A stretch of DNA of 32,000 nt, taken from Candidatus Electrothrix sp. GW3-4 (lineage in GTDB: Bacteria; Desulfobacterota; Desulfobulbia; Desulfobulbales; Desulfobulbaceae). Under the pieces are notes generated by a model. It worked only from the letters and a program-made list of their open reading frames with translations. It searched no databases and was not told where the DNA came from. How positions within the stretch are numbered: the first letter of the stretch is position 1; the number at the start of each line of letters is the position of its first letter. Below, in pieces: positions 8,131 to 30,500 of the stretch. Location: assembly GCF_037902255.1 (NCBI RefSeq), contig NZ_CP147990.1:1110001-1142000 (forward strand), given 5' to 3'. Made by a program: the position numbers and the translations under genes.

Positions 8131-8330
8131 ATCAGCTTAACTCTACGTCTCCACAGCCTTTGGAAAAGATTTCGGTAATGGGCAGGGAGAGGGCCGCCGT
8201 GTTCTTTCTCGTGCGCCCTGCTTTTAAAGAATCGAACGGTCCAAACAAAGTATCGGGCTGTCGCTTTTGAGTATCGGGCAGTCCTTATTAAGGAGCAAGA
8301 CCTGCGAGTAAAGAGTTGCCTGGTGCAAGG

Positions 8331-8444
8331 AAAGAAAGGAGCAGTCCTTTTTTAAAACCTCCCGCTCCTCTTTTAAAAAGTAGTTGTTGTCCTTTTTTAT
8401 CTCGCAGCTCTCCTTTCTTTAAAAGGAGTCATCCTCTTTTTCTT
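8331..8444 (+). repeat. Degenerate 21-24-bp repeat array (module M1)
   Basis: About 5 units of the form aaaaGgaG-N-CCTCTTTT. It is preceded by cctggtgcaaggaaaga, as the 28157 array is preceded by cctggtcaaggaaaga. Confidence 0.6.
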
Positions 8445-9248
8445 TGTGTCTTTTGTTTTTTAGAATGGAAGGGCACTAAGAGAAAAAGGAGCGGGTGTTT
8501 TTTTAGTACTGATCACCTTGTTTAACGCTGCAGGAGTTCTGTAAGCGAGCCAAGGAATAGGGAAGAAAGTTGGAGGAGTTGAGGGAGGAGAGCGTTCAGT
8601 TTTGCGAAGATAAAAAATGCTTAAATTGTTAAAATGTTAACTAGGTGCCACCGGAACCTCGCATAAACACTAAAAAATGACAAATAATATCAAACAGTAT
8701 CTCACAGGAAAGTTCCTGAATGTCATGCTTGACCAGATGGCTGATGGTAGGCACCCGTCTGTGTTTGATGATCCAATGGCTGAGAAGACCGAGTGGACCC
8801 CCCTGTGCAAAAGCCGTGCGAATTTCTGTACTCATAAATTGGTGACTGTCCATCGGAACAGGATGGAATTCCGTGTTTCGTCAGGAATGTTCCTTTGTTC
8901 GCTCCTCTTTGTTCTGATCGGGGTCGGTGCAACTGTTTTTGCCTTTTTTCCGTTGCTCTTTCTGTGGATCGTTCTGTGGGGCGATGGTGCTGACGGTTTG
9001 GGTCTTCTTGTTCTTTTGGCCCACGAATTTCCTGCTCCTTTTGTTTTGTTTGGGCTTGTATTCCTGGGAGCAGGCAGTGCCATGCTGTATTTCAGTACTA
9101 AACCAGTAGTTTTTGATAAACGGAAAGGCTTTTTCTGGAAGAGAAAGAAAGCACCTTATGACCCACATTCCGCACGTTGACACATAAAAAAATATTTTAT
9201 AACCTGCTGCCTCAAAAAGACATTTAATAAATCAACCAGGCAGCAGGT

Positions 9249-10892
9249 ATGGAAAACAACACAACGATTTTACCACAGGAATGCTCAAGTAAACTCCTCA
9301 ATCACTTGGGCCTAGTCGCGGGTATGTATGACGAACTCGGACTTGGGGAGCTGATTGACAGTCTGATTCATCAGGATAAAGAAAAGCGAGTTGTCTCAGT
9401 TGGTCAGGCAGTTAAGGCAATGGTTCTTAACGGGTTGGGCTTTGCGAATCGGGCATTGTATCTGACCCCGCATTTTTTCCAGGATAAACCGGTAGATCGA
9501 CTCATCGGAGAAGGCATTGAGGCCCAGCACCTGAACGATACTGTTTTGGGCCGGGCCTTAGAAGTGATTTACGAGCATAATCCCGAAGAGTTATATTCGC
9601 AGCTTGCAGCTAGGGCAATTGGTCGTCTAGGGCTGCTGGCACGTTTTGGTCACTTGGATTCAACGAGTTTTCATACCGACGGTCGCTATCCAGCCAACGG
9701 ATCAGAAGAGGAAGAAGGTGTTATTCGGATCACAAAAGGCTACAGCCGTGATCATCGTCCGGATCTGAACCAGATCGTGTTGCAGCTCATTTGCGAACGA
9801 CAGGCTGGCATCCCGCTTCTGATGAAGCCGTTAAGTGGTAACAGTAGCGATAAAACAGATTTTCGGGAAACAGTGCAAGCGCATATTGATCAGATGAAAA
9901 ACGATTTCAGCCTGGAATATCTGGTTGCGGATAGTGCGCTCTATACAGCGCAAACATTAAAAGAACTGAGCATGATATTGTGGATTTCCCGTGTACCGGA
10001 GACATTGAATCTGTCCCAGGAGATCATCCATGAAGTAGCTTCAAATCTGATGCAGGATCCTGAAAAAGCAGCATCTCGCAGTCTCGGGGTAGTTTATGGC
10101 GATGTCAGGCAGCGCTGGTTGGTTGTCTATTCGCCTGAAGCATATCAACGGGGACGCAAGACCGTAAACAAAAAATGCCTCAAGCTGAGCACAAATGAAT
10201 CCAAGCAATTCGATAAATTGTGCAAACAGGATTTTGCCTGCGAGGCCGATGCATTGAAAGCACTGTCCCGTTTTGAAAAAAAGCTGAAAATACTCTCAAT
10301 TCATGACGCTCGTGTTGTTGCTTTACCTCGCCATAAGGGCAAAGGACGGCCAGCCAAGGGCAAGAAACCGGACTTTTATGTTTACCGCATTGAAGGCAAC
10401 CCAGCCTCCCTGCTTCAGGAGAGAACCCGATTGTTGGAACGAAAAAGCTGTTTTATTCTTGCAACGAATCAGTTGGACTGCGAAGAATTGTCCGACGAGG
10501 AACTCTTGAAAGTGTACAAAGATCAGCAAAAGGTTGAACGGGGTTTTCGTTTCCTCAAAGATCCTATGTTTATGGCTTCAACGCTTTTTTTAAAATCCCG
10601 AAAACGTATCATGGCCCTGATGATGGTTATGACGCTTTGCCTCCTGGTGTACGCCGCGTTGGAATATCGCATCAGACAAGCGCTCGAAATAAATAATGAA
10701 ACATTTCCCAACCAGAAAGGAAAACCTGCCCCTAACCCTACTGCTCGTTGGGTATTTCAGTTTTTTTCAGGAATTCACCTGCTGCTTGTCGGCGGAATGC
10801 AACAGCTGGTCCTGAATTTAAATGAACATCATTTGCGTCTGCTGAAGCTGTTGGGTGGGAGATATGAAAAATTATATTCTGGAAATGGATAG
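9249..10892 (+). CDS. IS1634-family DDE transposase
   Basis: 547-aa ORF. N-terminal LNHLGLVAGMYDELGLGELID motif and C-terminal YKDQQKVERGFRFLK motif are typical of this family (recall). Confidence 0.85.
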   Translation: MENNTTILPQECSSKLLNHLGLVAGMYDELGLGELIDSLIHQDKEKRVVSVGQAVKAMVLNGLGFANRALYLTPHFFQDKPVDRLIGEGIEAQHLNDTVLGRALEVIYEHNPEELYSQLAARAIGRLGLLARFGHLDSTSFHTDGRYPANGSEEEEGVIRITKGYSRDHRPDLNQIVLQLICERQAGIPLLMKPLSGNSSDKTDFRETVQAHIDQMKNDFSLEYLVADSALYTAQTLKELSMILWISRVPETLNLSQEIIHEVASNLMQDPEKAASRSLGVVYGDVRQRWLVVYSPEAYQRGRKTVNKKCLKLSTNESKQFDKLCKQDFACEADALKALSRFEKKLKILSIHDARVVALPRHKGKGRPAKGKKPDFYVYRIEGNPASLLQERTRLLERKSCFILATNQLDCEELSDEELLKVYKDQQKVERGFRFLKDPMFMASTLFLKSRKRIMALMMVMTLCLLVYAALEYRIRQALEINNETFPNQKGKPAPNPTARWVFQFFSGIHLLLVGGMQQLVLNLNEHHLRLLKLLGGRYEKLYSGNG

Positions 10893-10906
10893 AGGGTATG
10901 CTGAAT

Positions 10907-12771
10907 AAGGGTGTTGAAAAGTACCCCTGCATAGAGCAATTTCAGTTGTCCGAGATGCTCAATAAGCATTTTTTTCGTTTGTTAGTGTCACTGCAATCTG
11001 ATGTCGAGCACTTTCCAGGCGGAATTCAACCTTTTTCAAAAAGCCACTATGGGCAAGGCTCTATTTTTTGGACAAGCCGACTGTCAGAAACAGCAAAAAT
11101 GAACAAACGGGTATTTTTGTAGCTGTAATAATTTAGATTGTTGTTTTGGTCCTTCTGCTATGCTGCCATTTTGAAGAGTGGCAGTTGCGGTGACTTTTTA
11201 GCAGGTATTTTTTTGCGGGTTCCTATCATTTTCAACAATAACAAGGAAATACTGCTGAGCGTACATCGAGCTGTGATCGCGGACTGACCGCGAACCCGAA
11301 CGGTTTCAAGGCCGGTTTGATGTTTTAACAGGTTGAAAGGTCGTTCAGAATTTTTGCGAATATCGTGTGCCTCCTGTATCTGCTCGACATGGTAAGGTAT
11401 TCGCTGGAAAAAGCCTCTGTCTAACGGTATGCATCGACATTGCGGACAGCTTCCTTTGAGAAGACATTCACCTGTATTTGCAGCACATTTATACTCGTGA
11501 TGATTCCCTTCGACGCCTGCATACTCCATAGGAACAGAACATTCATCATGGCAGAAAACAGTGCCTTTGACAGCATCAACATTATCCGGTGTAGATACTG
11601 TAGAACAGGGTGGAGTTGTCACGTATACACCTGTTTTATTGTACAATGATCCGTCATTGTCATGATAGGCGGTATCGGCGGTGATGAGTTTCATCTTAAC
11701 CCCCATAGCCTGCGCCACATCGACCAAAAGCGAAAGAAAGTGACTATCATGGTGATTTGCCGGTGCAAGCAAAGATATGATCGGAAAACTATGATCAGTT
11801 TCAGCGTCAATTGCAGTTAACGTATGCAGACGATAGCCGACTACGTACACAGATTTGTCACGCTTGTTGCGTCGTTTTCCACAGTCGCTGTCGAGATCAT
11901 TGTAAATGCGTATATTTTGACCATTGATATTCAATGAAGCCAGGGGGATTTTACATTCATTGGCCAGTTCGGTAGAGTCCACTCCGTGCAGGATATGGTC
12001 ACCAAGCATCCCGGACTGCAAAAAATGATGCAAAATATAAACCGTAATATTAATCTGTTGGACAAATGTGAGGGAATTACGGAATTTGCTAAGCTGAGTA
12101 TGGTCGATCATTGTTTTTTCACGCAATGACAATCCGATAAAGGCGCGATTCTGTTTGCGGTCAAGGCCGAGGTATTCTTCATCACAGAATTTTCGGTAGC
12201 TGATTTCTGGATACTTGATCGTCTTGAGCAGTTCGGCACGGAACATGTTGTGAGGGAAAAAGTCCCGCATAGCAGGACTATAGCCGTCATAAGCTAACAG
12301 GCGATTGATAATTTCGTTGTCAAGCAGCTGGTCGATAAACTGGAGCTCTTCATCTTTGATATATTTGGCGAAACGCCTTTCGCCAAAAAGCTTTATGATA
12401 CTGTTATTTTTTGATTCATTGACAATATCGGCCATCTGATCAAGGCTGATAATCCCCTTTGTCGGAACCTGTTGCTCCACGCCGAGCAGCTGATCTGGGG
12501 TGGCTGAAATATCCTGCTTGAAATCATACTCGCCCGCGACCTGCGCGAGGACTTTTCGAGAGATTTCCTTTTTGGTCTTACGGTTCAGCCGGTTCTAATT
12601 AGGATAGTTTTCCTTAAGCTCTTTTTGTACGAGACGTTTGATATTTTTATTATGCATAATGCCTGAAATGGGTAACGAATTAACATTATTAACTTTTTGT
12701 CATTATACAGGGTTTTTTCGACTTAAGCAACTGTTTTTGTGTAATATTGAAGTGTTCTTTTCAACACCCTT
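10907..12771 (-). mobile_element. Insertion sequence IS-B (IS4/IS5-superfamily), inserted 5 nt from the right end of IS-A
   Basis: Perfect 15-bp terminal inverted repeats AAGGGTGTTGAAAAG. 5-bp direct repeat TGAAT at 10902-10906 and 12772-12776. Length 1865 bp. Confidence 0.85.
11158..12480 (-). CDS. DDE transposase of IS-B, possibly N-terminally truncated
   Basis: 440-aa ORF from a GTG start. The same frame continues upstream to ATG 12657 but is broken by an in-frame TAG at 12595-12597. C-terminal Cys-rich region (CxxC). Family not resolved. Confidence 0.7.
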   Translation of the reverse strand: MEQQVPTKGIISLDQMADIVNESKNNSIIKLFGERRFAKYIKDEELQFIDQLLDNEIINRLLAYDGYSPAMRDFFPHNMFRAELLKTIKYPEISYRKFCDEEYLGLDRKQNRAFIGLSLREKTMIDHTQLSKFRNSLTFVQQINITVYILHHFLQSGMLGDHILHGVDSTELANECKIPLASLNINGQNIRIYNDLDSDCGKRRNKRDKSVYVVGYRLHTLTAIDAETDHSFPIISLLAPANHHDSHFLSLLVDVAQAMGVKMKLITADTAYHDNDGSLYNKTGVYVTTPPCSTVSTPDNVDAVKGTVFCHDECSVPMEYAGVEGNHHEYKCAANTGECLLKGSCPQCRCIPLDRGFFQRIPYHVEQIQEAHDIRKNSERPFNLLKHQTGLETVRVRGQSAITARCTLSSISLLLLKMIGTRKKIPAKKSPQLPLFKMAA

Positions 12772-13880
12772 TGAATGTGGGTTATGAGAACGGCAATTGG
12801 AGGGTTCGCAAAGATTGCGCTCGATTGGGAGAGGTTTATGCCCTTCAGTTGATTGCCGAGCTGGTTAGCGGGAATAAACATAAACAGAATTATTATACTC
12901 CCCATTCGCTCATTTTAAATTTGGAAAAATTAATTCTGAATCGGGCTTGTAAAATTTCAAACAGACCCTATTTTGGTATGAGATTGAGTTGAAACTCCTT
13001 TTTCTATAATCATAAATGACACTGAAATGATAGCGAATTTGACATCAGAAGAGCAAGGCGTTTTCGACAAAGACAAACTTCAAATCATCACAGAGCGAGT
13101 GGATGATATCCCTCTGCTTATAGCACAAATGATCAGGATGGGCCTTCGGGAAATCATCGACAGGCATATTCCTCAACATGGAAATCAGAGACAACTCAGC
13201 TGGGGATGGACCACCGTCATATGGATGGCCCATATCATAACTGAAGGGGATCATCGCAAAGTCTCGATGAGTGAGTATGTCCAGGAAATGCAACACACAT
13301 TGAGCTTTTTGGCGGATCAGCCGGTAGTGCCACTAGATTTCAGTGATGACCGTTTGGCCCATCTTCTCAGACATTTAAGCAATAACACATGCTGGTCAAA
13401 GATAGAAGCGGATCTCAATCAACAGACGATAGAGGTATATAATCTGGAGCCGGAAACAATCCGATGTGATGCAACTACAGTTTCTGCAGATCAAGAAATC
13501 ACGGAAGATGGATTGGTACAATTCGGTCACAGCAAAGACAATGCCAAGTTACCACAAATAAAATTGATGAGTGCTGCTCTGGATCCTCTGGGAATGCCAT
13601 TGGCTTCTGATGTTGTTTCCGGTGAAAAGGCAGACGACGGTCTCTATATTCCCTTGATAGCCCGGGTCAATGAGAGCCTTGAAAAATCCGGATTATTGTT
13701 CTCAGGTGATTGCAAAATGAGTGCATTGGAGACTCGGGCTTACTTGGTCTCTTCCAGGCAGCACTATTTGTGCCCCTTGCCGTTGACCGGTAAAACTTCT
13801 CATGAAATAACTGATTGGATTAATACAGGTATTGCCAAAGATCAAGAAGATGATTTGGTCTCTGTTTTCAGAGAAAATTA

Positions 13881-15538
13881 GATTGCCCTTAAAAAGCCTC
13901 AGTGCGCTGATTTTAAATGAAAAAGTTGTAAAAATATTGTAAAATATGCATGTTTTTGACGTTCACCCCCTCATAAGGCATGCACATGATCAGGTACACC
14001 AGTGACAGACAGCTTACACTTGAAGGATTCAGCCTTCCGTTTGGAGGTAAACTGAACCCTGAAAACAGATGGATCAAATGGCATAAAGTTATTCCGTGGG
14101 ATGAGTTCGCCATCAGATATTATCGAACTTTGGACCCGCATCAAGGACGACCAGCCAAAGATGCCAGATTGGTGATCGGCGCGTTAATCATTAAGCACAA
14201 GTTGACGCTCAGTGATGAAGAAACCGTACTTCAGATCCAGGAGAATCCCTATCTTCAATATTTTGTTGGATTTTCTTGTTTTCAAGACAAGCGACCTCTA
14301 GCTCCCAGCCTGTTTGTTGAAATTCGCAAGCGCATGGGAAAAGATGTCTTTTCTGCTTTTGAAGAAGTGATTTTGGAAAAACTTGCTCTCTCAAAGAAAA
14401 GTACGGCAAATGAAGACGAAAAAGAGGATGAGAGTCAGGAAGAGCCCGTTGAAAATAAGGGAAAAATGCTTGTCGATGCAACGGTTGCTGAGCAAGCGAT
14501 TCGTTACCCGACTGATCTGAGTTTACTCAACGAAGCTCGTGAGATTTCCGAGCAGCTGATTGATGATCTGTACAAACAGAGTGACTACGCCAAAAAGCCC
14601 AGAACATATCGGAGACTTGCCCGTAAAAACTACCTGAATCTGGCTAAGAAAAAGAAACCAGGCCGAAAAATTCTGCGGCGCGGACTTCGGCAGCAATTAC
14701 AGTACATCCGAAGAAATCTGCGATATATTGATGAGTTGCTTGACAATGTTGAAACGGCACCTTTTCCACTTCCCCATCAGCAACAACGACAGTATTGGAT
14801 CATTCAGCATGTGTATCGCCAGCAGGATGAGATGTATAAAAAACGAAAACGACGCTGCGATGACCGAATTGTTTCCATTGCCCAACCTCATGTACGACCG
14901 ATAGTTCGTGGGAAAGCAGGTAAAAATGTGGAGTTCGGTGCCAAACTCAGCGTGAGCATGGTCGATGGTTTGGCTTTTGTCGATCATATTGGTTGGGATG
15001 CCTTCAACGAAGGCACGGATTTGCGTGAGCAAGTGGAGAGTTACAAGCGCCGGAATGGTTACTATCCGGCAGTCGTACTGGCTGATCAGATTTACGGAAC
15101 AAGAGAAAACCGTAAATATCTCAAAGAGAAAGGTATTCGATTTGGTGGTAAACGATTGGGCAGGTCCCCGAAAGAGACAGAAGAAAACAAAGAACGTCTT
15201 CGGGAACTGAAAGCACAACGAATTCGGGATAGTCGAGAACGGATCCCCATTGAGGGGAAATTTGGCCAAGGAAAAAACGGCTACCGACTCAACTACATCC
15301 GGGCAAAACTTCAGAGAACCTCTGAAGCATGGATCAACTGTATCTTCCTGGTCATGAATCTGATGGTTCTGCTCAGGAAGTTGCAGGAACAGCTTGAAAA
15401 TTTATATCTTTCACGGTTTTTACTTTTACGCAGCCAGCTGAATCATATTATCGCTCGATTTTTGGCGTTCTTTGAACAAATGCCAAGGCAAGTCTTGCAG
15501 TATTGCCTGTATGAGAGGTTAGCTTTTTGAGGATGCTC
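13881..15538 (+). mobile_element. IS5/IS1182-type insertion sequence (IS-D) nested in the IS-C transposase gene
   Basis: Imperfect terminal repeats GAnnnnCCTnAAAAAGC (12 of 18 match). Direct repeat AAATTA at 13875-13880 and 15539-15544. Excision restores the IS-C reading frame. Confidence 0.7.
13980..15530 (+). CDS. IS5/IS1182-type DDE transposase
   Basis: 516-aa intact ORF. N-terminal LEGFSLPFGGKLNPENRWIKWHKVIPWDE motif is typical of this transposase type (recall). Confidence 0.85.
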   Translation: MHMIRYTSDRQLTLEGFSLPFGGKLNPENRWIKWHKVIPWDEFAIRYYRTLDPHQGRPAKDARLVIGALIIKHKLTLSDEETVLQIQENPYLQYFVGFSCFQDKRPLAPSLFVEIRKRMGKDVFSAFEEVILEKLALSKKSTANEDEKEDESQEEPVENKGKMLVDATVAEQAIRYPTDLSLLNEAREISEQLIDDLYKQSDYAKKPRTYRRLARKNYLNLAKKKKPGRKILRRGLRQQLQYIRRNLRYIDELLDNVETAPFPLPHQQQRQYWIIQHVYRQQDEMYKKRKRRCDDRIVSIAQPHVRPIVRGKAGKNVEFGAKLSVSMVDGLAFVDHIGWDAFNEGTDLREQVESYKRRNGYYPAVVLADQIYGTRENRKYLKEKGIRFGGKRLGRSPKETEENKERLRELKAQRIRDSRERIPIEGKFGQGKNGYRLNYIRAKLQRTSEAWINCIFLVMNLMVLLRKLQEQLENLYLSRFLLLRSQLNHIIARFLAFFEQMPRQVLQYCLYERLAF

Positions 15539-16772
15539 AAATTATAAGGGCGAATTGATTTTTGCAGCTAAAGGCTATGAGTTTAATCGTACTCAGGTTT
15601 TTGAAAAAGACGTCGAAAAAATGGAATGGGATGAACGTGTTTTGGTTGTCCATTCCCCTGCCCATGCCAGGCAACAAACTGCGGGACTTGAGGCTCGACT
15701 GGTAAAAGCCCAAGAAAAAATTGAAGCATTGACTCCTCCGCGAGGGCGAGGCAGGCGTCAGATAAGCGATGAAGCAGAACTGCTTGCGGCTGTCACTAAA
15801 ATAACAGAAGCTCAAAGGGTTGATGGGTTACTGAACATTCAATACGAAAAACAGATCGAGCAGAAAACAAAATATGTTGGCAGAGGCAGGGGGCAGCCAA
15901 TAGAGAAAAAGTCACTGTCGAAACAGTCCGTTATCAAATCACCTCTATTGAAAAGAACCAAGAGGCCATTGCAGAGCAAAGCACTCGGTTTGGCTGGAAA
16001 GCATTTGTGACTGAGCTCGCTGCGGATAAACTGTCATTGCACGATGCTGTACTGTCATACCGAAATGAATATCGGGTTGAATGCATTTTCGGAAGACTAA
16101 AAAGTCGACTCAATATCGCTCCGTTATTTGTTCGAAAAGACGATCAAATTCAAGGTATGACCTACTTGTTGACCTTGTGTGTCAGGGTTATGACGTTGAT
16201 AGAGTTTGTTGTTCGGCGTTCATTGAAGGAAGAAAAAACCGGGCTGTCTGGTATGCATCCTGAGAACCGAAAAAAAATTACTGATAAACCGTCCGCAGAG
16301 AGGATTCTGAAGGCTTTTTCAAGAATTAATCTCACCATTATTTTTGATCAAGCAAGGAATGTTGTTGTTCGCTCACTAAAACCATTGTCGAATTTACAAA
16401 TAGAAATAATACAAAGGCTAGAGTTGGATACATTTGTTTATTATGGTCTTGAAAATTAAAAATACTCTATTTCAAATGAGCGAATGGGGAGATTATAGTT
16501 ATGAAATTGATCTTATCCTGAAAGATGGCACCCGGATTAATGCGATGGGTCACGGCAAAAAAAGTAAGATTCAGGAAGACGCAAAGATCTTGGCTGAATT
16601 TCTTGGCAAGCCGCTCTGGGATGCCTCAGAGATGAAGATTCTTGATAAAAAAATGTTCCAGGATATTTGTAAGCGAGCCAAGGAGTATCCTGAGTTGCTG
16701 GATGCGCAAACAAAGAGAAAGTTGGAGGAGTTGAGAGAGAGATTTTGATATAATGTTCCCTTTTTGAAAACG

Positions 16773-17448: not shown

Positions 17449-17471
17449 TATGTGCTCTCCTTGATGAATTT

Positions 17472-17550
17472 CTGATTGCTGAACAGATTGATGGGGTGTT
17501 CCTGAAACGGCTTAATAGGATATTACCTGATGCGGGAAAGTGGGGCAAGG
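17472..17550 (+). repeat. Shared ~79-bp promoter block (module M2), copy 1
   Basis: ctgattgctgaacagaTTGATGg..cTTAATAggATATTAcctgatgcgg..gtggggcaagg. Near-identical to 18407-18483. Contains promoter-like hexamers on both strands. Confidence 0.7.
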
Positions 17551-17650
17551 CGAATGCGGAAGCGGGGCAAGGTGTGGTCCCGTACCGGGGATAATGCATG
17601 GTATCTACCCTGCAAGGCAGGGTAAACATTTTGCAATATATCACCCCTTA

Positions 17651-18034
17651 TCATTCCGCAAAATAGGTCTTCACAATTTCGTCCAGCACATCCTGTAGAT
17701 GAGGAGTTGTCGAGGGAAGCGTCTCTTCGGGTGTATGCTTATGATCGTGAAAACCAAGCGCAGGTTTATGAGCGGCATTGTCATACCGAAAACGTAACTG
17801 TGTCTGGGCATCCTGATAGTGAAACGAATATGTCTTCTTGTCGAGACGGAAGCGGAGATCAAGATATTCTTTGAAAAAGAGTGTTGATCCGTCAAGAAAG
17901 ACCAGTGCACCTTTTACGAATCCTATCTTCTCTGTCCGAATGTCTGTCATCACCTCGGATGAGATGATCAGTCCGGTTCCGGCAGAGTCTGCAATAGTAT
18001 TGTTGATGTCAGTCAGATACTCTTTGAGTAACAT
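17651..18034 (-). CDS. DUF6516-like protein (family annotated in databases as the TumE-type TA toxin)
   Basis: 127-aa ORF. Motif YSFHYQD..RFRYDNAAHKPALGFHDHKH. Family assignment from recall. Confidence 0.6.
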   Translation of the reverse strand: MLLKEYLTDINNTIADSAGTGLIISSEVMTDIRTEKIGFVKGALVFLDGSTLFFKEYLDLRFRLDKKTYSFHYQDAQTQLRFRYDNAAHKPALGFHDHKHTPEETLPSTTPHLQDVLDEIVKTYFAE

Positions 18035-18314
18035 ATTCGATATTGTTCAGGAGGTGTAATTCTTCCCGGATGGCCTGTCGAAGCTGGAGTTCCCCCATCC
18101 AACTGACATATTCGTCATCGCCGCCGTCCAGGTCTTCTGCGGTACAGTCGGTCATGAACTGTTCTGAAGCAATATGATATTTGGATTCAAATCTTTGAAT
18201 TTCCTGTTCCGTCTTTCGCAGCCCTATTTCAATCCGTTTCACTTTTGCCGCAATGGCTGACTGGATAACGGGAAGCGCATTCTGTTGATCTGATATAATC
18301 TGGAGTTGTACCAT
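18009..18314 (-). CDS. Coiled-coil partner protein of the DUF6516 gene (putative antitoxin)
   Basis: Start set at ATG 18314 (MVQLQIISDQ..), which has AAGGA upstream; the ORF track extends to 18545 through repeat sequence. 101 aa. Overlaps the downstream gene by 26 nt. Confidence 0.55.
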   Translation of the reverse strand: MVQLQIISDQQNALPVIQSAIAAKVKRIEIGLRKTEQEIQRFESKYHIASEQFMTDCTAEDLDGGDDEYVSWMGELQLRQAIREELHLLNNIEYVTQRVSD

Positions 18315-18406: not shown

Positions 18407-18483
18407 CTGATTGCTGAACAGATTGATGGAGCGTCCCTAAAACGCTTAATAGGATATTACCTGATGCGGGGAAGTGGGGCAAG
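18407..18483 (+). repeat. Shared promoter block (module M3), copy 2, followed by two degenerate 21-bp units (18484-18527)
   Basis: TTGATG at 18423-18428, a 17-nt spacer, then TTAATA at 18446-18451. On the minus strand, TTGCCC-N17-TAATAT overlaps it. Confidence 0.7.
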
Positions 18484-18590
18484 AAAGCAACGTTCCTTTT
18501 CTCCTCGTGCTTCTCCTTTTTTATTATTATGATGGAGGGGCACAAGAAAGAAAGGAGCGGGTATTTGTTTAGTATTAATCACCCTGTTTA

Positions 18591-18698
18591 ATGTTGCAGG
18601 AGATCTGTAAGCGGGCCAAGGAGCATCCTGAGTTGCTGGATGAGCAAACAAAGAGAAAGCTGGAGAAATTGAGGGGGAGGTTTGAGATAATGTCCTAA
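18591..18698 (+). CDS. 35-aa mini-ORF (S-segment copy 3), stop overlapping the next ATG
   Basis: MLQEICKRAKEHPELLDEQTKRKLEKLRGRFEIMS*. TAATG overlap with the 18698 ORF. Homologous to the C terminus of paralog B. Could equally be a gene remnant. Confidence 0.3.
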   Translation: MLQEICKRAKEHPELLDEQTKRKLEKLRGRFEIMS

Positions 18699-19336
18699 TG
18701 AGTGAGTCAACGCATTTAACAGACGAAGAAATTTTTCGTCGGATAATACTTCTTTTGTTTGGAGAGTTATATAATCTAAAAATATCAGATAAATTTATAA
18801 GTGACATTAGCTTGTCGGAACTATATGAATTCAGAGGGAATTCGGAATCGTTTCGGAATTTTTGTACGAAATTTAACAGTATTAAATCAAAGGTGGTTCC
18901 CAATATTAGAATTCAAGACAGCGAAAAAATTATTCTTACCCTAGAAGAAATTATGTCTTTGAGGAGAGAACTATTTGGCACCTATAGAAATCAAATGAAA
19001 TCAGAAATTAAAAGGTGCAAGTACCTAGATACAGGAAAGACTGTTGGTGCTATTATGTTTAATGGGCTACAGATAATGAACCCTCTCGTTAGTGCAGGAA
19101 CGAATACTTTTCAAATTTTGACTAATTTGACATCTTTTTTTGATAAAGATAATAGAATTGCTGTTGTTTTAAACAGTTTTTTAAATAAAATTAAAGGCTT
19201 GTCGCCGTTTCGACAATTTGCGTATGAACTTTTTAATTTTCAGAGTCAACTCTTGCCGTCAATCTTTGATCAATCTATTTCTGATGAACCCAAGCTTGAT
19301 GATCTGTTAAAAAGTCAGAAATCAAGAAATCGCTAA
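18698..19336 (+). CDS. Hypothetical protein (AT-rich orphan)
   Basis: 212-aa ORF with no recognised motif. Visibly lower GC than its flanks. Confidence 0.6.
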   Translation: MSESTHLTDEEIFRRIILLLFGELYNLKISDKFISDISLSELYEFRGNSESFRNFCTKFNSIKSKVVPNIRIQDSEKIILTLEEIMSLRRELFGTYRNQMKSEIKRCKYLDTGKTVGAIMFNGLQIMNPLVSAGTNTFQILTNLTSFFDKDNRIAVVLNSFLNKIKGLSPFRQFAYELFNFQSQLLPSIFDQSISDEPKLDDLLKSQKSRNR

Positions 19337-19513
19337 CGACAACTCAAGGGGTTACAAAGCAAAATTCCACAAAATTGGACTTTCTACGAAATTATCAAAC
19401 TTGATTGTCAACACGATATAGCACAAAAAAAGTCTAATTTCATAGTGAGGTTTCTACAATTATTAAGTTGTGCTTCTTGGTTAATTATTAAGAATAATTG
19501 AGCTGATCTTCAT

Positions 19514-19627
19514 ATGGTTACCTCTTTCCAACTCATCTCACCCTTCACCCCCTCCGGCGATCAACCCGTAGCAATCGACAAGATCGCCCAAGGTCTGAAT
19601 GACGGAGCGCAACATCAAGCCGGGTAG
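19514..19627 (+). pseudogene. Diverged duplicate of the uvrB 5' end (37 codons)
   Basis: [37 protein letters not shown] aligns to codons 1-36 of uvrB at 20249. Homology ends at about 19619. Confidence 0.8.
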
Positions 19628-19702
19628 GTCTGCTTGAGTGCAACGAAAGCGGACAGCGTATTTCTCAAATTGTCTGATTTTGTTGCACTCAATCATACCT
19701 AC
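19624..19702. repeat. 21-bp inverted repeat pair (19 of 21 match) separated by 37 bp
   Basis: GTAGGTctgctTGAGTGCAAC ... GTTGCACTCAatcatACCTAC. It starts 4-5 nt after the uvrB homology breakpoint, upstream of hicA. Confidence 0.7.
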
Positions 19703-19743
19703 GCAACTGAATTGAAAAAAAATAAAATCGGAAATAACCTGCT

Positions 19744-19998
19744 ATGGGTAAATATGAAAAATTGATCCTGCGGATTCTTCGCGGTCAAAGCGATGCTAAT
19801 ATCTCATTTTCTGATCTGGTTAATCTGTTGCGGCATTTAGGTTTTGAACTGCGGGTATCCGGCAGTCATCACATTTTCTGCAAGAAAGGAGTTGAAGAAA
19901 AGCCGAATTTGCAGAAAGATGGAAATAAGGCGAAACCGTATCAGGTCAAGCAGGTCAGAAACATGATACTGAAATACAGATTGGGAGATGATATATGA
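19744..19998 (+). CDS. hicA: HicA-family toxin
   Basis: 84-aa ORF. Motif LLRHLGFELRVSGSHHIF. Overlaps hicB by 4 nt (ATGA). Confidence 0.8.
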   Translation: MGKYEKLILRILRGQSDANISFSDLVNLLRHLGFELRVSGSHHIFCKKGVEEKPNLQKDGNKAKPYQVKQVRNMILKYRLGDDI

Positions 19999-20210
19999 CA
20001 AATAAATATGAAATTATTATCTATTGGAGCGAGGAGGATCTTGCTTTTATTGCTGAAGTCCCTGAACTCCCCGGCTGTTCAGCACACGGAGACACGTATG
20101 ATTCCGCCTTGGCGAACATTCAGGATGCCATGAATTTATGGATAAAGACCGCTGAAGAATTCGGTGATCTGATCCCGGCCCCGAAAGGGCGTCGCTTGGC
20201 CTTTGCGTAA
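19995..20210 (+). CDS. hicB: HicB-family antitoxin
   Basis: 71-aa ORF. Motif [30 protein letters not shown] is typical of the HicB N-domain. Confidence 0.8.
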
Positions 20211-20248
20211 AAGCGCATTGGACAGATTGCCTTTCTTTTAATTATTGC

Positions 20249-22276
20249 ATGTCTTCTACTCCATTCCAACTCATCTCCCCCTTCACTCCCTCAGGCGACC
20301 AGCCGGCAGCGATTGATAAAATCGTCCAAGGCCTGAATGACGGAGCACAGCATCAGGTGCTGCTCGGCGTGACCGGCTCAGGCAAGACCTTTACCATGGC
20401 CCAGGTTATCGCCAAGGTCAATCGACCCGCCTTGGTCATGGCCCCGAACAAAACTCTGGCAGCCCAGCTCTTTGCCGAGTTCAAGGATCTCTTTCCCCAT
20501 AACGCGGTGGAGTATTTTGTTTCGTATTACGATTATTACCAGCCCGAGGCCTATATTCCGGCCTCGGATACCTATATTGAAAAAGATTCGGCCATCAACG
20601 ATGCCATCGACAAGATGCGCCATTCCTCCACCCGGGCCCTGCTCACCCGCGATGACGTGCTCATCGTGGCCTCAGTCTCCTGCATTTATGGACTTGGTTC
20701 GCCGGACGAGTACAAGAACATGCATCTCTTTCTTCAGCGGGACGAGGATTATCCGATGGAGGAGGTCCAGCGACGCCTGGTCTTTATGCTCTACGAGCGC
20801 AACGAAATGTCTTTTCACCGGGGTACCTTCCGGGTGCGCGGCGATGTGATTGACATCTTCCCGGTCTATGAGGAAGACCGTGCGGTGCGGGTGGAGTTCT
20901 TTGGTGATACCATTGACGCGATCTCCATCATTGATCCCCTGCGCGGGGTGGTATTGGAGAATGTGGACGAGCTGACCCTGTTTCCCTCCAGCCACTTTGT
21001 CACGGGCCAGGAAAACCTGCAACGGGCCATGCATACTATTAAGGATGAGCTGCGTGAACGTCTGGATGAACTCTACGCAGAAAACCGTTTGGTCGAGGCC
21101 CAACGCCTGGAGCAACGCACCCAGTTTGATCTGGAGATGATTACTGAACTGGGCTATTGTAACGGCATTGAGAACTACAGTCGCCATCTCACCGGTAAAC
21201 CGCCTGGTGCGCCGCCGCCCAACTTACTCGACTATTTCCCGGATAACTATATCACCATCATTGATGAGTCCCATATCGGGGTGCCCCAGATCGGCGGGAT
21301 GTTCAACGGGGATCGGGCGAGAAAGACTACCTTGGTCAACTTCGGCTTTCGCCTGCCCTCGGCCCTGGACAACCGCCCTTTGCGCTTTGATGAATTTGAG
21401 CAGCGGGTCCATCAGACCGTCTATGTCTCGGCCACGCCTGGACCCTATGAGATGGAAAAATGTGAGGGCCGAATCGTGGAGCAGCTCATTCGTCCGACAG
21501 GCCTGCTTGATCCCCGGATTGAGGTGCGGCCAGCAGGTACCCAGGTGGATGATCTGTTGGAGGAGATCAGGCGTTGCACGGAACGAGGCGAGTCCGTTCT
21601 GGTCACGACCCTGACCAAACGCATGGCTGAGGATCTGACCGAGTATTATGGCAAGGTCGGTGTTAAGGTCCGCTATCTCCATTCGGACATCAAGACCCTG
21701 GAACGGATCGAATTGATCCGGGATCTGCGTCGGGGCGAGTACAACGTATTGGTGGGTATCAACCTGCTGCGCGAGGGGCTGGATATCCCGGAGGTGGCCT
21801 TGGTGGCGATCCTGGATGCGGATAAAGAAGGCTTCCTGCGTTCCGAGCGGTCCCTGGTCCAGACTTGCGGCCGGGCAGCCCGTAATGCCGACGGCACGGT
21901 GATTCTCTATGCCGATAAAATCACCAAATCCATGCAGTACACCATTGACGAGACCAACCGCCGTCGGAAAATCCAGGAGGAATTTAATCAAGAACATGGT
22001 ATTGTCCCGCAGACGATAATCTCTGAGATCAAGGACTCTATGAGCGAACATCTCCGGGCCTCAGGCTGGGTTCCCGAAGACGCTGCCGATGATGCCGGGG
22101 TGCTCAAGGCGGCAGAGCCGGAAATGGTGTATCGTTCTGCTGCTGACCTGCATAAAGATATTAAGCAGCTGGAGAAGCAGATGCAGGAAGCGGCAGATAA
22201 TCTGGCCTTTGAGGAGGCCGCCGCCCTGCGGGATCAGATTAAGGACCTGAAGATGTTGGAGTTGGAACTTGGCTGA
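20249..22276 (+). CDS. uvrB: Excinuclease ABC subunit B
   Basis: 675-aa ORF. Walker [19 protein letters not shown], helicase motifs, and a C-terminal UVR domain ([13 protein letters not shown]). Confidence 0.97.
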
Positions 22277-22841
22277 AAACGACTCCCTATCGGCTTCTGA
22301 GCTTTGCCGATATCAGAAACGACAGGGTATTGCTGCGAACAAGTCAACCTTTGATTGGTAGGATTAATCTGAGGGGTGAAGATGAAAGTATTGCTCTTTG
22401 ACGTTACCACCATGTCATATATATAATGAAAAGTGACGGCATCGTAAAAAAGCCCATCATTATTCAAAAGAAGTTTTGTAATTTGTTGAACTGAAGTGGG
22501 TGGTCGCATATATTTTTTTGTTTTTTTACGAGACCGTCAAGGTTAAACCGTGACGGAGGCGTGTTGTTGAGCTTCCATTACTGATGGTTTCGTAAAAAGT
22601 CCAATTTTGCGAAAAATAGTATTGTAACTCGTTGAATTGCCGTTAACGAATTGCTGTTTTCTGACTTTTTACCAGGCCATCATTGCTGGCAGGCAAAACT
22701 TTGCCTAGCCTTTTTAAGTAGGTCACCTTGAATAATCGACACTTCTTATGCTCCAATATGCCGATAAATCAGTTCGGCAGCTAAATTGGAGTGTCGATTA
22801 TATTTAGCCGGGTACTTATGTTTCATAAGGAGGAAGGAAAG

Positions 22842-24491: not shown

Positions 24492-24530
24492 GCAGGTTAA
24501 CTTTTAATCTGAGAATCTGGTATCTCTCGA

Positions 24531-25268: not shown

Positions 25269-25390
25269 ACGATCTTTCCCAAAAGGTGGCTGTTGCTGAC
25301 AGGGCAGCGAGGAGAGACCCATGCAGGAGCGATTGCCCTCTTTTGAGGTCGTTAAGGATATGTCTTGTGATAGATTTTGCTGTGGCCAAC

Positions 25391-25419
25391 TGGTCAATAC
25401 TTTGTGTGAATGGTATAAT
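25391..25419 (+). promoter_or_regulatory. sigma70-type promoter with extended -10 upstream of PilZ-1
   Basis: TGGTCA, 17-nt spacer, then TGgTATAAT. Confidence 0.5.
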
Positions 25420-25473
25420 AAAGATATAAAGCGGATGCCCTGTTCTTGAAAAAATCCTGGAGAGAGGCTGCTG

Positions 25474-25944
25474 ATGAATACTATTATAGGATATGTCCTG
25501 CCTGACGAGACAACAAGTATTACCTGTCCCTCCTGTAATAGGGTACGGCGTATCCCTGTGAAAAAATATCGCAAGACTTCCCACTCCTTGACAGCCCGCT
25601 GCACCTGCAATGCCCGGTTTACTCTCCATCTTGATTTCAGGCATTATTATAGAAAGGAAATAGATCTGCCAGGGCTCTGGAAAAAGGCCCGTTCTGCGGG
25701 CCGGGGCTGGCAGGATATGCGGGTCAGGAACCTCTCCCGCGGCGGACTGGGGTTTACGGTGAGCGGGCAACAGCAGCCTGAAGAAAAACAGGCCTTGTTG
25801 GTGGAGTTTCAGTTGGATGATCGAAAGAAGACCAAGATCGTCCAGAAAGTACGGGTCTGTACCGTTCATGGGGACTATGTCGGGTGTAAGTTTATTGACT
25901 TGGGGCTGTTTGAGAAAGAGCTCGGCTTTTATTTATTGCCTTGA
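25474..25944 (+). CDS. PilZ-domain protein with N-terminal MJ0042-type zinc ribbon (paralog 1)
   Basis: CPSC..x18..CTC zinc ribbon. PilZ motifs RHYYRK (RxxxR) and NLSRGGLGF (D/NxSxxG). Confidence 0.8.
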   Translation: MNTIIGYVLPDETTSITCPSCNRVRRIPVKKYRKTSHSLTARCTCNARFTLHLDFRHYYRKEIDLPGLWKKARSAGRGWQDMRVRNLSRGGLGFTVSGQQQPEEKQALLVEFQLDDRKKTKIVQKVRVCTVHGDYVGCKFIDLGLFEKELGFYLLP

Positions 25945-26060
25945 TTGCCTTGAGCTGTCCTTGGCAGGCATCAAGCAGGCATTTCATCACCCCCTTCTTT
26001 GCTCCCCCCATAGGGCAGAGGGCCACAAGAGTTAGGGGAGAGAAAGGTCGGGAAATAAGG

Positions 26061-26143
26061 CCCATTTCGCCCCCTGGGGCGAAACAACAAAGCATGCAAG
26101 GTGATCGGACGACTCCAGGGAGTCATCGGTATTTTTATATAAA
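26061..26143 (+). repeat. Two-hairpin repeat element, copy B (3' of PilZ-1)
   Basis: cccat-TTCGCCCC-ct-GGGGCGAA-acaacaaagcatgcaag..cggacgactccagggagtcatcgg-tatttttatataaa. Homologous to 5382-5466 on the minus strand. Confidence 0.6.
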
Positions 26144-26151
26144 AGGGCAAA

Positions 26152-26185
26152 GGGCGGATCGCTGAAGCGATCCGCCCTTTTTTTT
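26152..26185 (+). terminator. Rho-independent terminator
   Basis: GGGCGGATCGC-tgaa-GCGATCCGCCC, a perfect 11-bp stem, followed by T8. Confidence 0.85.
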
Positions 26186-26344
26186 GCCCCGCTGGTGTTC
26201 TCTTCTCTCTCCAGTCATGCCGGAGAAGACAGAACGATATCTGTCTGCCCGGCAGTGTCCTTCAGGGGCAATTTTCTCTCAGTAACCCCTGCTCCAGGAT
26301 GGAGGAAGACGCAAATTCCTTCTGTCCGTGAGAAAAAAAGGCTG

Positions 26345-26373
26345 TTGATGGATGGAAAAAAGAGCGTTAAAAT
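26345..26373 (+). promoter_or_regulatory. Conserved promoter-like core of module M4
   Basis: TTGATG-N17-TAAAAT. About 130 bp around it are homologous to 27950-28085. Confidence 0.45.
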
Positions 26374-26536
26374 AGGCAGTAAGTGGATGTGGTGACAAGG
26401 CAGAGCTTTGGTGTCCCTAAGAGAGAGGTTTGTTGGCAAGAGGAGGAACGGTTATGGACTGACCCGTGAGGCAATACCGTTGTGCGATATGTACATCGAT
26501 GCTTTTTTTTGAAAAAAAGCTCAAGAGAGGAGACTG

Positions 26537-27007
26537 GTGAATACAGTTATAGCACATGTTCTTCCTGATGATACGGCAAGCATTGTCTGTCCCTTCTGTA
26601 ACAAGGTTCGTCGTATTTCTGTTGAAAAATTTCGCAATACAGCCCATACCCTTACTGTCCGCTGCGCCTGTAAGGCCAAGTTTACTATCCAGCTTAATTT
26701 CAGACAGCAGTATAGAAAGGAAACAGATCTTCCAGGGACCTGGAAAAAGGTCAGTGTTGCTCATCACCTTTGGCAGGATATGCGGGTCAAGAATCTCTCC
26801 CGAGGTGGCTTATGTATGCGTGTGAGCGGGCAGCATCAGCTGGAAGAGAAAGAGGCCTTGTTGGTAGAGTTTCACCTGGATGATCGGAAGGAGACTGAGA
26901 TCGTGCATAAAGTGCGGGTATGTGCCGTAGATGGGGAGTATATCCGAGCGGAGTTTGTTGATTTGGACCGTTACGAAAAAGAGCTTGGCTTTTATCTGCT
27001 CCCTTGA
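26537..27007 (+). CDS. PilZ-domain protein with N-terminal zinc ribbon (paralog 2)
   Basis: GTG start. Collinear with 25474-25944. Same length (156 aa) and same C terminus KELGFYLLP*. Confidence 0.8.
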   Translation: MNTVIAHVLPDDTASIVCPFCNKVRRISVEKFRNTAHTLTVRCACKAKFTIQLNFRQQYRKETDLPGTWKKVSVAHHLWQDMRVKNLSRGGLCMRVSGQHQLEEKEALLVEFHLDDRKETEIVHKVRVCAVDGEYIRAEFVDLDRYEKELGFYLLP

Positions 27008-27089
27008 TTCCCTGTCTATAGGGGGCAACCCCTTGTTTTTATAGAAGAGGAGGGCGGGGCAGCCGATCAGGCGTCTCTTCTTTCATGTC

Positions 27090-27300
27090 GTGTTGTCCTG
27101 ACCCGCTGGGCCGGGAGGGGGATTATATGAAGGTGGTTGGCAAGGCCGACCAGGCTTCTCTCCTTGCATACTTTGTTATTCTGGCCCGCTGGGCCGGGAG
27201 GGGAGTTATACGAAGGTGGTTGGCAAAGCCAACCAGGCTTCTCTCTTTGTATATTTTGCTGTCCTGTCCCGCTGGATCGGAATGAGAGATTATTATGAGG
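27090..27300 (+). repeat. 83-bp tandem repeat, about 2.4 copies
   Basis: CCCGCTGG starts at 27101, 27184 and 27267. Each full unit contains a hairpin GGTTGGC-AAR-GCCRACC (perfect in unit 2). Confidence 0.85.
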
Positions 27301-27391
27301 GGCAGCGGCGAGATGGGATCCTGATCGCTGCGATTCGAAGTGGAGAAGGCCGGAAACAGAGAACAGACCATAAACCAGAGGAGGTGCCATA

Positions 27392-27778
27392 ATGGAACGC
27401 GAATTTCCCACTGATGAAGATGAGATTATCGAATTAGCCCGGAAGATTATCAAGGGGATGACCAATAATCCGGATTTTCCCGACCCACCGGTTCCCATGG
27501 CAGAGTTGCAGAAGCATCTTGATGAGGTGCTCAAGGCAAAACATGCAGAGGCTGTTGCCAAGGAGGCGGAGAGGCAAGCCACGGAGAAGGCGCAGGCTGC
27601 CTGGGAGGAGCTGTATCTGGCCCAGCAGAGTATGCGTGAGTATAATAGGAAGCATGGCATACGCGATAACGATACCCACTTGGTTACCTCTGGCAGGGCT
27701 GGGCAGGCTGACCGTTTTTTTTCTCAGTTCTCTGACCAGGATGAATCCTTGCAGATTCAGAAGAAGGAGAAGGGCTGA
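27392..27778 (+). CDS. Hypothetical protein (family P, paralog 1)
   Basis: 128-aa ORF with GGAGG upstream. Paralogous to 30501-30893; shared motifs are DEDEIIEL, AAWEE and IQKKEKG*/IQRKDKD*. Confidence 0.6.
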   Translation: MEREFPTDEDEIIELARKIIKGMTNNPDFPDPPVPMAELQKHLDEVLKAKHAEAVAKEAERQATEKAQAAWEELYLAQQSMREYNRKHGIRDNDTHLVTSGRAGQADRFFSQFSDQDESLQIQKKEKG

Positions 27779-28042
27779 CCCGGCCTTGCCTGCAAAGGTC
27801 GTGCTGGAAGGACCTGCTCATGAGGAGCAGGTTTGGTTCGAGGCCCTGAATTCCCTGCCGGAATCAGGGCCTTTTTGTCTGACCCTGTCTGTGCTCCTCC
27901 GTTGACATCGCGGCGATCTTGGCAAGCTCATGAAGAGAACTGCAAAGGCAGCAGGGCATTTCGGGGCAGATTTCCCTTCTGCACGGGCCCTTTCAGGAGG
28001 GAAAGGAGGAAAATGCCTTCTGTGGGTGAGGAAAAAAGCCTG

Positions 28043-28071
28043 TTGACGGGCTGAAAAAGGCGCGTTAAAAC
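28043..28071 (+). promoter_or_regulatory. Conserved promoter-like core of module M5
   Basis: TTGACG-N17-TAAAAC. Homologous to 26345-26373 and related to the TTGATGG..TTAATA cores at 17488 and 18423. Confidence 0.5.
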
Positions 28072-28156
28072 AATATGAAGGCGGGTAGGTTCTGCCATGC
28101 AGGACCTGCCCGGAGCAAGGGGTCGTACGGGGGGCATCTGCACGTCCCTGGTCAAG

Positions 28157-28471
28157 GAAAGAGGTCGTTCTTTTGTCAAAAGAGCTCGCTCTTTCGTTAA
28201 GAGAGGGGCCACTCTTTTAAAGAGAGGTCATCCTTTCGTTAAGAGAGGCTCCACTCTTTTAAAAAGTGGTCGTCCTTTTCTTGCGAGAGGTCCCTCTTTC
28301 GTTGCGAGAGCTCGCTCTTTCGTTAAGAGAGGGGCCACTCTTTTAAAGAGAGGTCATCCTTTCGTTAAGAGAGGCTCCACTCTTTTAAAAAGAGCTCGTC
28401 CTTTTCTTAAGAGAGGCACCTCTTTTGTCGCGAGAGGCTGTTCGTTTGGCAAAAGTGGTGCCTCTTTTCCG
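28157..28471 (+). repeat. Tandem array of 15 x 21-bp interrupted-palindrome units
   Basis: Exact 21-bp phasing over 315 bp. The unit is aaGAGAGGnnnnnCTCTTTcgtt. Block 28178-28261 is re-duplicated at 28304-28387. Confidence 0.9.
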
Positions 28472-30435: not shown

Positions 30436-30500
30436 GCTTCCTGAAGGGAAACATCTAGGCCAAAAGCAGAGAACTCACCACAACCCAGAGGAACGCGACA

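Follow-up and report, generated by a model that had tools for sequence, protein, structure and literature searches.

We analysed a 32,000-nt stretch of the genome of the cable bacterium Candidatus Electrothrix sp. GW3-4 (contig NZ_CP147990.1, forward-strand positions 1,110,001 to 1,142,000), which we call the window and number from its first letter. An earlier note had described five promoter-box-repeat modules, M1 to M5, in it. The M1–M5 region is plastic. It lies between a nitrogenase-like gene and a phosphoenolpyruvate (PEP)-utilising-enzyme gene, and it carries four insertion sequence (IS) transposase genes or fragments, toxin-antitoxin operons (UPF0175/DUF3368, TumE and HicAB), uvrB, a C10 peptidase gene, pyrF, two PilZ paralogues and many unannotated small genes. 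Our main subject is M5, an array of 21-nt units that stands between a predicted promoter and a small gene, here named Q. All five modules were described as lying on the + strand, and all five do; features below are on that strand unless stated otherwise.

From its 5' side, M5 opens with a region (27951-28042) that blastn and alignments show to be common to M4 (26252-26344), and that holds an A-tract, GAGGAAAAAAGCC, at 28028-28040. The predicted promoter follows (28043-28071), with a -35 element TTGACG (28043-28048), a 17-nt spacer and a -10 element TAAAAC (28066-28071), from which we infer a transcription start at about 28077-28079. A consensus sigma-70 scan flags M4 alone, misses M5 by one base (its -10 element ends in C, not T) and flags no sigma-70-type promoter in M1, M2 or M3. 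Support for the M5 promoter comes from conservation: the sigma-70 architecture TTGAYG-17-TAAAAY is present in M4 and M5 and is kept in L163 and L171, two of the related loci described below. The copies read TTGATG-17-TAAAAT in M4, TTGACG-17-TAAAAC in L163 and TTGACA-17-TAAACC in L171, the latter two again with an upstream A-tract.

Near the predicted 5' end of the transcript, RNA folding gives a 13-bp hairpin (GGGTAGGTTCTGC-CAT-GCAGGACCTGCCC, 28083-28111) whose apex holds the only in-frame ATG (28097). A box, CCTGGTCAAGGAA (28147-28159), lies directly before the first repeat unit and belongs to a 16/17 match with M1 8319-8335. The array proper comprises 15 units of exactly 21 nt (28160-28474), as delimited by Tandem Repeats Finder (TRF), a repeat finder and cutting into 21-nt pieces; the strict register without a single indel bears out the earlier count of 15. 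The consensus is AGAGG-NNNNY-CTYTY-NTN-AAR, with higher-order repeats of 42 nt and 126 nt, and a pattern spanning two adjacent units matches 4 times against 0.00 expected. In each unit, a purine block (AAGAGAGG) and a pyrimidine block (YCTYTTY) are separated by 4-6 variable bases, and a short linker follows, so that each + strand RNA unit can pair with itself or with a neighbour.

Behind the array, alignment defines a tail (28475-28588) made up of five degenerate units of 21 nt and two further codons, which ends in a TGA (28586-28588) 23 nt before the ATG of Q. The position of this stop is shared by all loci, although L171 has TAA instead of TGA, and the tail alignment is free of indels over 105 nt across the window, L001, L163, L164 and L171. 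One reading frame, in register with the 21-nt unit, is free of stops through the whole tract (28079-28588; 169 codons, or 163 if counted from the ATG at 28097). Its heptads read R-G-x-S/T/P-F/L-V/L-K. The box reads V-K-E in the same frame, with the AGA of the first unit completing K-E-R; L163 has TGC AAA GAA AGG at the box position. Between 28475 and 28611, a scan found no strong rho-independent terminator and only weak short-stem matches (a 6-bp stem at 28543-28557, others inside repeat units). In the homologous array-Q intervals of other loci, we saw no hairpin with a T-run by eye.

Gene Q (28612-28959, 115 aa) is preceded by a strong ribosome-binding site, AAGGAGG (28600-28606); homologues and an AlphaFold model support this call. 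We found 43 Q homologues, all in cable bacteria (Electrothrix genomes) or sediment metagenomes, and the context of the ribosome-binding site, ACACAAGGAGGCTGCAATG, is kept among them. The AlphaFold model (predicted local distance difference test, pLDDT, 78) has helices at residues 6-22 and 33-86, the second a 54-residue long helix, and a disordered basic tail; the basic tail, GGTRSSERKKPKKK, is conserved. Q has no match in Pfam, NCBIfam, PHROGs, PADLOC or the PDB: a PDB profile search gave nothing below E 0.08, and the best Foldseek match was at E 0.7. Q is not a ToxN-like nuclease. To our knowledge, cable bacteria have not been brought into culture, and the majority of the small genes specific to their lineage lack a known function.

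Short copies of the 3' end of Q also occur downstream of Q (window 29232-29456; L163 11019-11105; L165 11976-12044; L171 4419-4469). The copies in L163 and L165 are separated from Q by toxin-antitoxin or related small genes, so the 3' end of Q may be an insertion hot spot.

To place M5 in a wider context, we fetched the loci of Q homologues, each of which has a different genomic neighbourhood. The M5 layout, with an array followed by Q, recurs in at least seven other Electrothrix loci, with about 8 to 18 units; an array lies upstream of the Q homologue in L001, L163, L164, L165, L166/L167, L170, L171 and L175. In L163, L164, L171 and L175 these are arrays of 10-17 units of exactly 21 nt. L165 and L166/L167 have 21-nt units of a different type (TTGCGAGAGCYTGCAA), L170 has a decayed array of 22-23-nt units, and L172 has no array. 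The similarity thus extends beyond the window, with related arrays in Electrothrix sp. Rat3, E. aestuarii, Ca. Electronema aureum and several metagenome contigs. The earlier note had placed its modules before unrelated genes; because the M5-type module instead stands beside Q in eight loci, it behaves as a leader of Q and not as a free cassette. Arrays beside genes other than Q are confined to M1 and L017, both decayed, and about 150 kb of fetched Electrothrix loci contained no array except those upstream of Q.

Broader searches returned few further relatives. A search with the translated array frame found one true relative, P0001 on the European Nucleotide Archive (ENA) contig L001, where an array is again followed by a Q homologue; other protein matches were unrelated heptad open reading frames (ORFs) from other tandem repeats. 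The two-unit DNA pattern gave 41 matches in a genome collection that excluded GW3-4, all of them single chance matches except the array of Ca. Electronema aureum, which lies between unrelated genes and has three in-frame stops. With a three-junction pattern in metagenomes, the matches listed included unrelated 21-bp tandem repeats and no new family member. The element matches no described family, and we found no description of such repeats in cable bacteria in the literature.

Three further observations concern these arrays. An ENA metagenome contig from an unrelated organism (L173 7543-8182, among PATR autotransporter genes) carries an array of similar style with a 42-nt period (GAGAAAAGAGGAGCTACACTTTTGAAAAGGGACGCCTCCCCC) and an open frame (KRGATLLKRDASRE...), just upstream of a DUF7133/cytochrome c gene. 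Many other metagenome 21-bp arrays carry an AAAAGAG...CTCTT motif, for example L057. In Electrothrix sp. Rat3, a PIN/PhdYeFM operon lies directly upstream of the array leader (L164 8773-9404); it is absent from the orthologous Logan contig (L175 2693-2720), and homology resumes at TAGTAGCATG.

The orthologous pair L164 and L175 allowed repeat counts to be compared between relatives, and the indels between the two arrays measure exactly 21 and 63 nt. Unit consensus, in turn, differs between loci. The tract changes in length by gaining or losing whole units, and homogenisation acts within each locus. Such gain and loss of whole units (21 and 63 nt) between close relatives is also seen in variable-number tandem repeat (VNTR) and contingency loci. 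Unlike in those loci, the units lie downstream of the promoter and have a length that is a multiple of three, so copy number alters neither promoter spacing nor frame and does not act as an on/off switch.

Divergence within the same pair suggests that selection may act on the leader and array at the nucleotide level. L164 and L175 differ at 3 of 106 nt in the leader and at 29 of 417 in the array. Over a nearby intergenic alignment of 174 columns they show 18 mismatches and 2 gap openings, and synonymous divergence (dS) in neighbouring genes is 0.20-0.52. These comparisons bear on one alternative – that the array is a functionless minisatellite in the Q leader, persisting through slippage and drift, with its frame and hairpins mere by-products of unit sequence. 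Consistent with this alternative, Q outlasts the decay or disappearance of the array (in L166, L170 and L172), unit consensus drifts between loci, the units show neither covariation nor a protein-like substitution pattern (see below), and unrelated 21-bp tandem repeats are common in metagenomes. A functionless repeat does not readily explain why an array has kept its position in Q homologues as distant as about 60% amino acid identity, why leader and array have diverged less than synonymous sites and the intergenic DNA nearby, or why the tail lacks indels in five loci and is depleted of frame-0 stops. We consider it unlikely that the array is without function.

The open frame raises the possibility that the array is a true gene whose product would be a strongly basic protein of heptad repeats, (R-G-x-S-F-V-K)n, some 100-170 aa long, made with Q and perhaps forming a toxin-antitoxin-like couple with it. 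Several features point this way. The frame AGA GGN NNY TCT TTY GTN AAR (R-G-x-S-F-V-K) is open for 106-174 codons in six loci, and is free of stops through both array and tail in M5. Stops number 1 in the unit-phase frame of seven arrays, against 31 and 37 in the other two frames; in the tails of six loci, frame 0 has 1 and the others 7 and 10. The 21 = 3x7 register is strict in six arrays, including units without hairpin potential (IGADNNK in L164; the L171 units). Per-position entropy tracks codon phase, with 0.68 bits at position 2, 1.18 at position 1 and 1.35 at position 3 (permutation p 0.014), and frame 0 gives the best synonymous fraction and BLOSUM score in four of four type-1 arrays. 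One such ORF, P0001, has been called in a metagenome. The Q loci also lie among toxin-antitoxin genes, and arrays decay where Q stays intact.

Substitution patterns argue against a protein product. Between L164 and L175, array differences fall 9/7/13 on the three codon positions, with a ratio of nonsynonymous to synonymous divergence (dN/dS) of 0.66. The strong third-position bias of four neighbouring genes in the same pair (38/16/210, dN/dS 0.04-0.14) is significantly different (Fisher p 1.2e-4). In the tail, differences by codon position are 0.47/0.37/0.48 (four loci), against 0.15/0.09/0.34 in Q. No start is conserved: frame starts differ among loci (ATG, TTG, GTG), most without a Shine-Dalgarno sequence, and the ATG at the hairpin apex of the window, though conserved in sequence, is out of frame in L163, where its homologue ATGCAGG lies in a different frame from the array. 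Rare codons dominate the frame: of its 18 Arg codons 13 are AGA, a codon that accounts for 9% of Arg codons in genes. The type of heptad changes sharply from locus to locus (RGxSFVK, RGxSLNV, ARACNSx), and an AlphaFold model of the array frame (pLDDT 47) shows no fold and is too poor for use. The recorded gene calls of L163-L165 place no gene at the array, the window has no recorded gene with exactly this product, and the frame has no match above noise in family libraries (Pfam, NCBIfam, PHROGs, PADLOC). From these sequence patterns, we conclude that the array is probably not a conventional protein gene; a dedicated heptad-repeat protein is, in our judgement, improbable. Passage of ribosomes through the frame is plausible, because the less constrained tail is depleted of stops as well.

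We next considered RNA-level properties. The M5 array folds far better than shuffled sequences on the + strand (z -8.7) and less so on the - strand (z -4.0). In six of six arrays, the + strand fold is more stable than the - strand fold, by 3-38 kcal/mol, because many of its pairs are G-U. The + strand is also more stable than synonymous-codon shuffles that encode the same peptide (z -1.4 to -5.4).

A trans-acting repeat RNA is another alternative – either a type III-like antitoxin that is cut into 21-nt-phased pieces and neutralises Q, or a sponge for an RNA-binding protein, possibly Q itself by way of its basic tail. Type III toxin-antitoxin systems carry 2-6 near-identical units of 34-45 nt. 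Like ToxIN, CptIN and TenpIN, M5 has one promoter, then tandem direct repeats of variable number and then a small protein gene, in surroundings rich in toxin-antitoxin genes; its many short units are hairpin-prone on the + strand, and Q has the conserved basic tail. The M5-type array differs in having 21-nt units in 8-18 diverged copies that are just 60-90% alike, in a stop-free frame within the repeats and in the lack of a convincing terminator between repeats and Q. Q is predicted to be a helical coiled-coil protein with one long helix, not a ToxN/AbiQ-type nuclease, and resembles ToxN, AbiQ and CptN neither in sequence nor in fold. Since Q is not ToxN-like, the resemblance to type III systems is architectural only. 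Many short hairpin-prone repeats on one RNA strand are likewise found in the CsrB, RsmY and RsmZ RNAs. The array differs from these in its strict 21-nt period and in having no separate gene with its own terminator; its unit loops (GGTCGT, GCTCG, GGGCCA and similar) contain no GGA inside units. Rfam searches gave no match at gathering or permissive thresholds, and the weak matches were all far below gathering. A CsrA sponge, an ANTAR target, a CRISPR and a tRNA-related element were considered and rejected. With no covariation among units either, we regard a trans-acting RNA as very unlikely.

A further alternative places the function in DNA, with the array serving as phased protein-binding sites (iteron-, centromere- or operator-like) downstream of the promoter. 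The exact 21-bp period, equal to two helical turns, palindromic junctions such as CTCTTTTAAAGAG, and nucleotide-level conservation without codon bias are all in keeping with this idea. Iterons and plasmid centromere repeats (20-22 bp, bound by Rep or ParR) share with the array a period of about two helical turns and a position beside a promoter. They differ from it in that no replication, partition or regulator gene (rep, par) is linked to the array in any locus, and the array lies inside a predicted transcribed leader on the chromosome. Most of its 'palindromes' need G-T pairs, and the strand asymmetry of pairing described above points to RNA. The variation of unit consensus between loci would also call for co-evolving binding proteins. 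We judge binding sites of this kind to be highly improbable.

We tentatively favour another explanation, though with less than even confidence – that the tract is a co-transcribed, cis-acting tandem-repeat leader of Q that gains and loses whole units and may be read through by ribosomes. Under this explanation, a near-consensus sigma-70 promoter with an upstream A-tract would start a transcript that opens with the 13-bp hairpin, continues through the box, the 15 units and the five degenerate units, and reaches the strong ribosome-binding site and ATG of Q with no terminator between. The tract would then act in cis on Q expression, via transcript stability, ribosome access or both. Ribosomes would probably read it as a long, rare-codon-rich upstream frame that ends 23 nt before the Q start, and it would be the act of translating, not the peptide, that matters. 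The closest analogy is control by leader peptides or upstream ORFs (trp/his, tnaC, erm), in which a rare-codon-rich upstream frame likewise ends shortly before a ribosome-binding site. The array frame departs from these in spanning 100-170 tandem-repeat codons rather than 10-30, in having no conserved start, and in that we found no attenuator or terminator alternative.

Several points weigh against a cis-acting leader. Its promoter, transcript and translation are all inferred from sequence, and L164 and L175 lack an M5-type promoter. Q persists intact in loci with a decayed array (L170, L166) or none (L172), which makes the tract dispensable in some lineages. The nucleotide-level constraint comes from one orthologous pair with small counts. 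The frame has neither a conserved start codon nor a conserved Shine-Dalgarno sequence, and the lack of stops within the array follows from the conserved bases A1 G2 G4 G5 Y9 C11 T14 T17 A19 A20. As for structure, shuffling codons between units leaves fold energy unchanged, and a register slid by 2 pairs equally well. Among 69 distinct units there is no covariation: paired positions make up 74.1% of cells, against 73.4 +/- 0.9 after shuffling, and the covariation score equals the shuffle mean. RNAalifold on the tail gave a covariation term of +0.92 and no conserved structure. The pairing potential is thus generic, of purine block against pyrimidine block, and no specific fold is proven.

A bolder version of the association between array and Q is that the two form a new two-part cable-bacterium module, in which either the repeat RNA or a polycationic heptad-repeat peptide is the functional partner of the coiled-coil Q. 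We think this quite unlikely; if true, it would represent a repeat-encoded toxin-antitoxin-like or autoregulatory pair without a relative among known systems. A conserved small gene with a strong predicted promoter and an unusual repeat leader whose length varies among close relatives could offer a concrete handle on how cable bacteria tune or vary expression. The array also carries a caution for annotation. A repeat with a unit length that is a multiple of three can mimic both a gene (open frame, codon-phase conservation) and a structured RNA (very low fold energy), and can still fail the evolutionary test for each.

The remaining modules clarify how M5 relates to the rest of the window. We scored module pairs by local alignment against about 2,800 other window segments. 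M4 (26252-26429, from blastn and the consensus scan; promoter 26345-26373) is a paralogue of the M5 promoter region: 26252-26372 aligns to 27951-28070 with 68.6% identity over 121 nt (blastn), above every background window. The earlier proposal that M4 and M5 share about 100 nt upstream of the -35 element therefore held up (69%, 121 nt). M4 has no array and no match to the array hidden Markov model (HMM), keeps a short remnant, GTCCCTAAGAGAGAGGT, at 26413-26429, and lies upstream of PilZ-2 (26537-27007). On this alignment, M4 and M5, which lie 1.7 kb from each other, stem from a single promoter region by local duplication, and M4 has lost the array.

M1 (8319-8450; Smith-Waterman and HMM) appears to be a decayed copy of the M5-type array. 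It consists of a box (8319-8332) and about 5 units. The M1 box, CCTGGTGCAAGGAAAGA, matches the M5 box, CCTGGT-CAAGGAAAGA, at 16 of 17 positions (p~0.005), and M1 8319-8440 has Smith-Waterman scores of 30.5 to L017, 23 to M5 and 20.5 to L171 (background maximum 16-17). An HMM built from arrays outside the window finds M5 at E 1e-11 and M1 weakly, at E 0.003 and 0.11. Of the earlier description of M1, the roughly five units survive in this significant likeness to arrays; they are degenerate (21, 21, 24, 22 and 22 nt), most lack the purine half, TRF finds no repeat there, and the supposed promoter core is not flagged.

M2 and M3 belong elsewhere. M2 (17472-17549) and part of M3 (18407-18483) are the left and right copies of a 78-nt direct repeat, found by self-comparison, with 92% identity over 78 nt and a score above every background window; M3 continues into a T-rich stretch (18484-18517). 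That stretch aligns to the end of the M1 array, an alignment that is not significant alone. M2 starts 24 nt upstream of the UPF0175 start codon of the minus-strand UPF0175/DUF3368 operon, and is followed by a tandem 22-nt duplication at 17529-17572 (GATGCGGGAAAGTGGGGCAAGG / CGAATGCGGAAGCGGGGCAAGG). The two repeats, 935 nt apart, enclose exactly a two-gene, minus-strand TumE toxin operon (17651-18314; Pfam TumE E 1.7e-18), and the motif CCCTGCAAGGC occurs on both sides of it (17608, 18397). The hicAB operon (19744-20210) is bracketed likewise, by two versions of the uvrB 5' end that are 82% identical over ~100 nt, the genuine one at 20257-20355 and a pseudo-copy at 19519-19617. Because of the TumE layout, the hicAB parallel and the Q 3'-end copies beyond toxin-antitoxin genes elsewhere, M2 and M3 are best read as probable duplicated flanks of a toxin-antitoxin cassette insertion. 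The bracketing of TumE and hicAB looks like a recurrent mode of cassette insertion with target duplication, and such direct repeats hint at how these cassettes may insert in the GW3-4 genome.

Taken together, these comparisons do not sustain a single dispersed promoter-box-repeat cassette; the copies resolve into separate relationships (M4/M5, M2/M3 and, as described below, M1/M3). We therefore rejected the five modules as one promoter family, in favour of two arrays (M5 intact, M1 decayed), a promoter pair (M4/M5) and an unrelated pair (M2/M3). The core said to be common to all comes down, for M2/M3 against M4/M5, to TTGATGG and an A/T-rich stretch (scores 7.5-8, p 0.30-0.46), which is probably what any two promoter-like stretches share. 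The common box holds between M1 and M5; a loose regular expression for all five has 12 window matches, 7 of them outside the modules. The units assigned to M3 (2) and M4 (1-2) show no HMM match and no array alignment (p 0.2-0.6). Local duplication, which the earlier note had discounted, accounts for M4/M5, and M2/M3 are the direct repeats that bracket the TumE operon. What stands of the proposed rapidly recombining regulatory or RNA element is a real, fast-recombining tract that plausibly acts at the regulatory or RNA level, and not a mobile cassette in five copies. No terminal inverted repeat brackets any module.

Downstream of their supposed units, M1 and M3 share a segment (8451-8556 vs 18518-18622; 83% over 106 nt) that, in M1, runs into a 3' fragment of a gene family, here called X (8451-8610, self-comparison). 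Both modules are fused to this fragment at the same point, which points to a single ancestral junction and its later duplication. The last ~35 codons of family X (..ICKRAKE.PELLD.QTKRKLE.LR.RF) occur in four copies (7139-7247, 8520-8610, 16652-16756 and 18590-18698), with a different gene after each. One copy alone is attached to a gene body (intact end 16652-16748), and at 18698 the stop of another overlaps the ATG that follows (TAATG). Pfam, NCBIfam, PHROGs and PADLOC gave nothing useful for the genes that lie downstream of M1 and M3, or for a further gene, P (128-130 aa).

Other repeats and paralogues mark the region. Two paralogues of gene P (27347-27797 and 30457-30912) bracket the Q region, and the PilZ paralogues are in tandem (25443-25950 and 26506-27013, 75% nucleotide identity). 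An 83-nt tandem repeat of 2.6 copies (81% matches; 27061-27275) lies between PilZ-2 and gene P and bears no relation to the 21-nt units. The four IS transposase genes or fragments (DUF4277+DDE, DDE_Tnp_1, DUF772+DDE) cluster at 9249-15530, separating the M1 region from the region that holds X2, M2 and M3. We also observed two inverted repeats: one of 89 nt with 79% identity (5370-5458 and 26067-26155), and one of 101 nt with 78% identity (19297-19397 and 22582-22682) that flanks hicAB plus uvrB.

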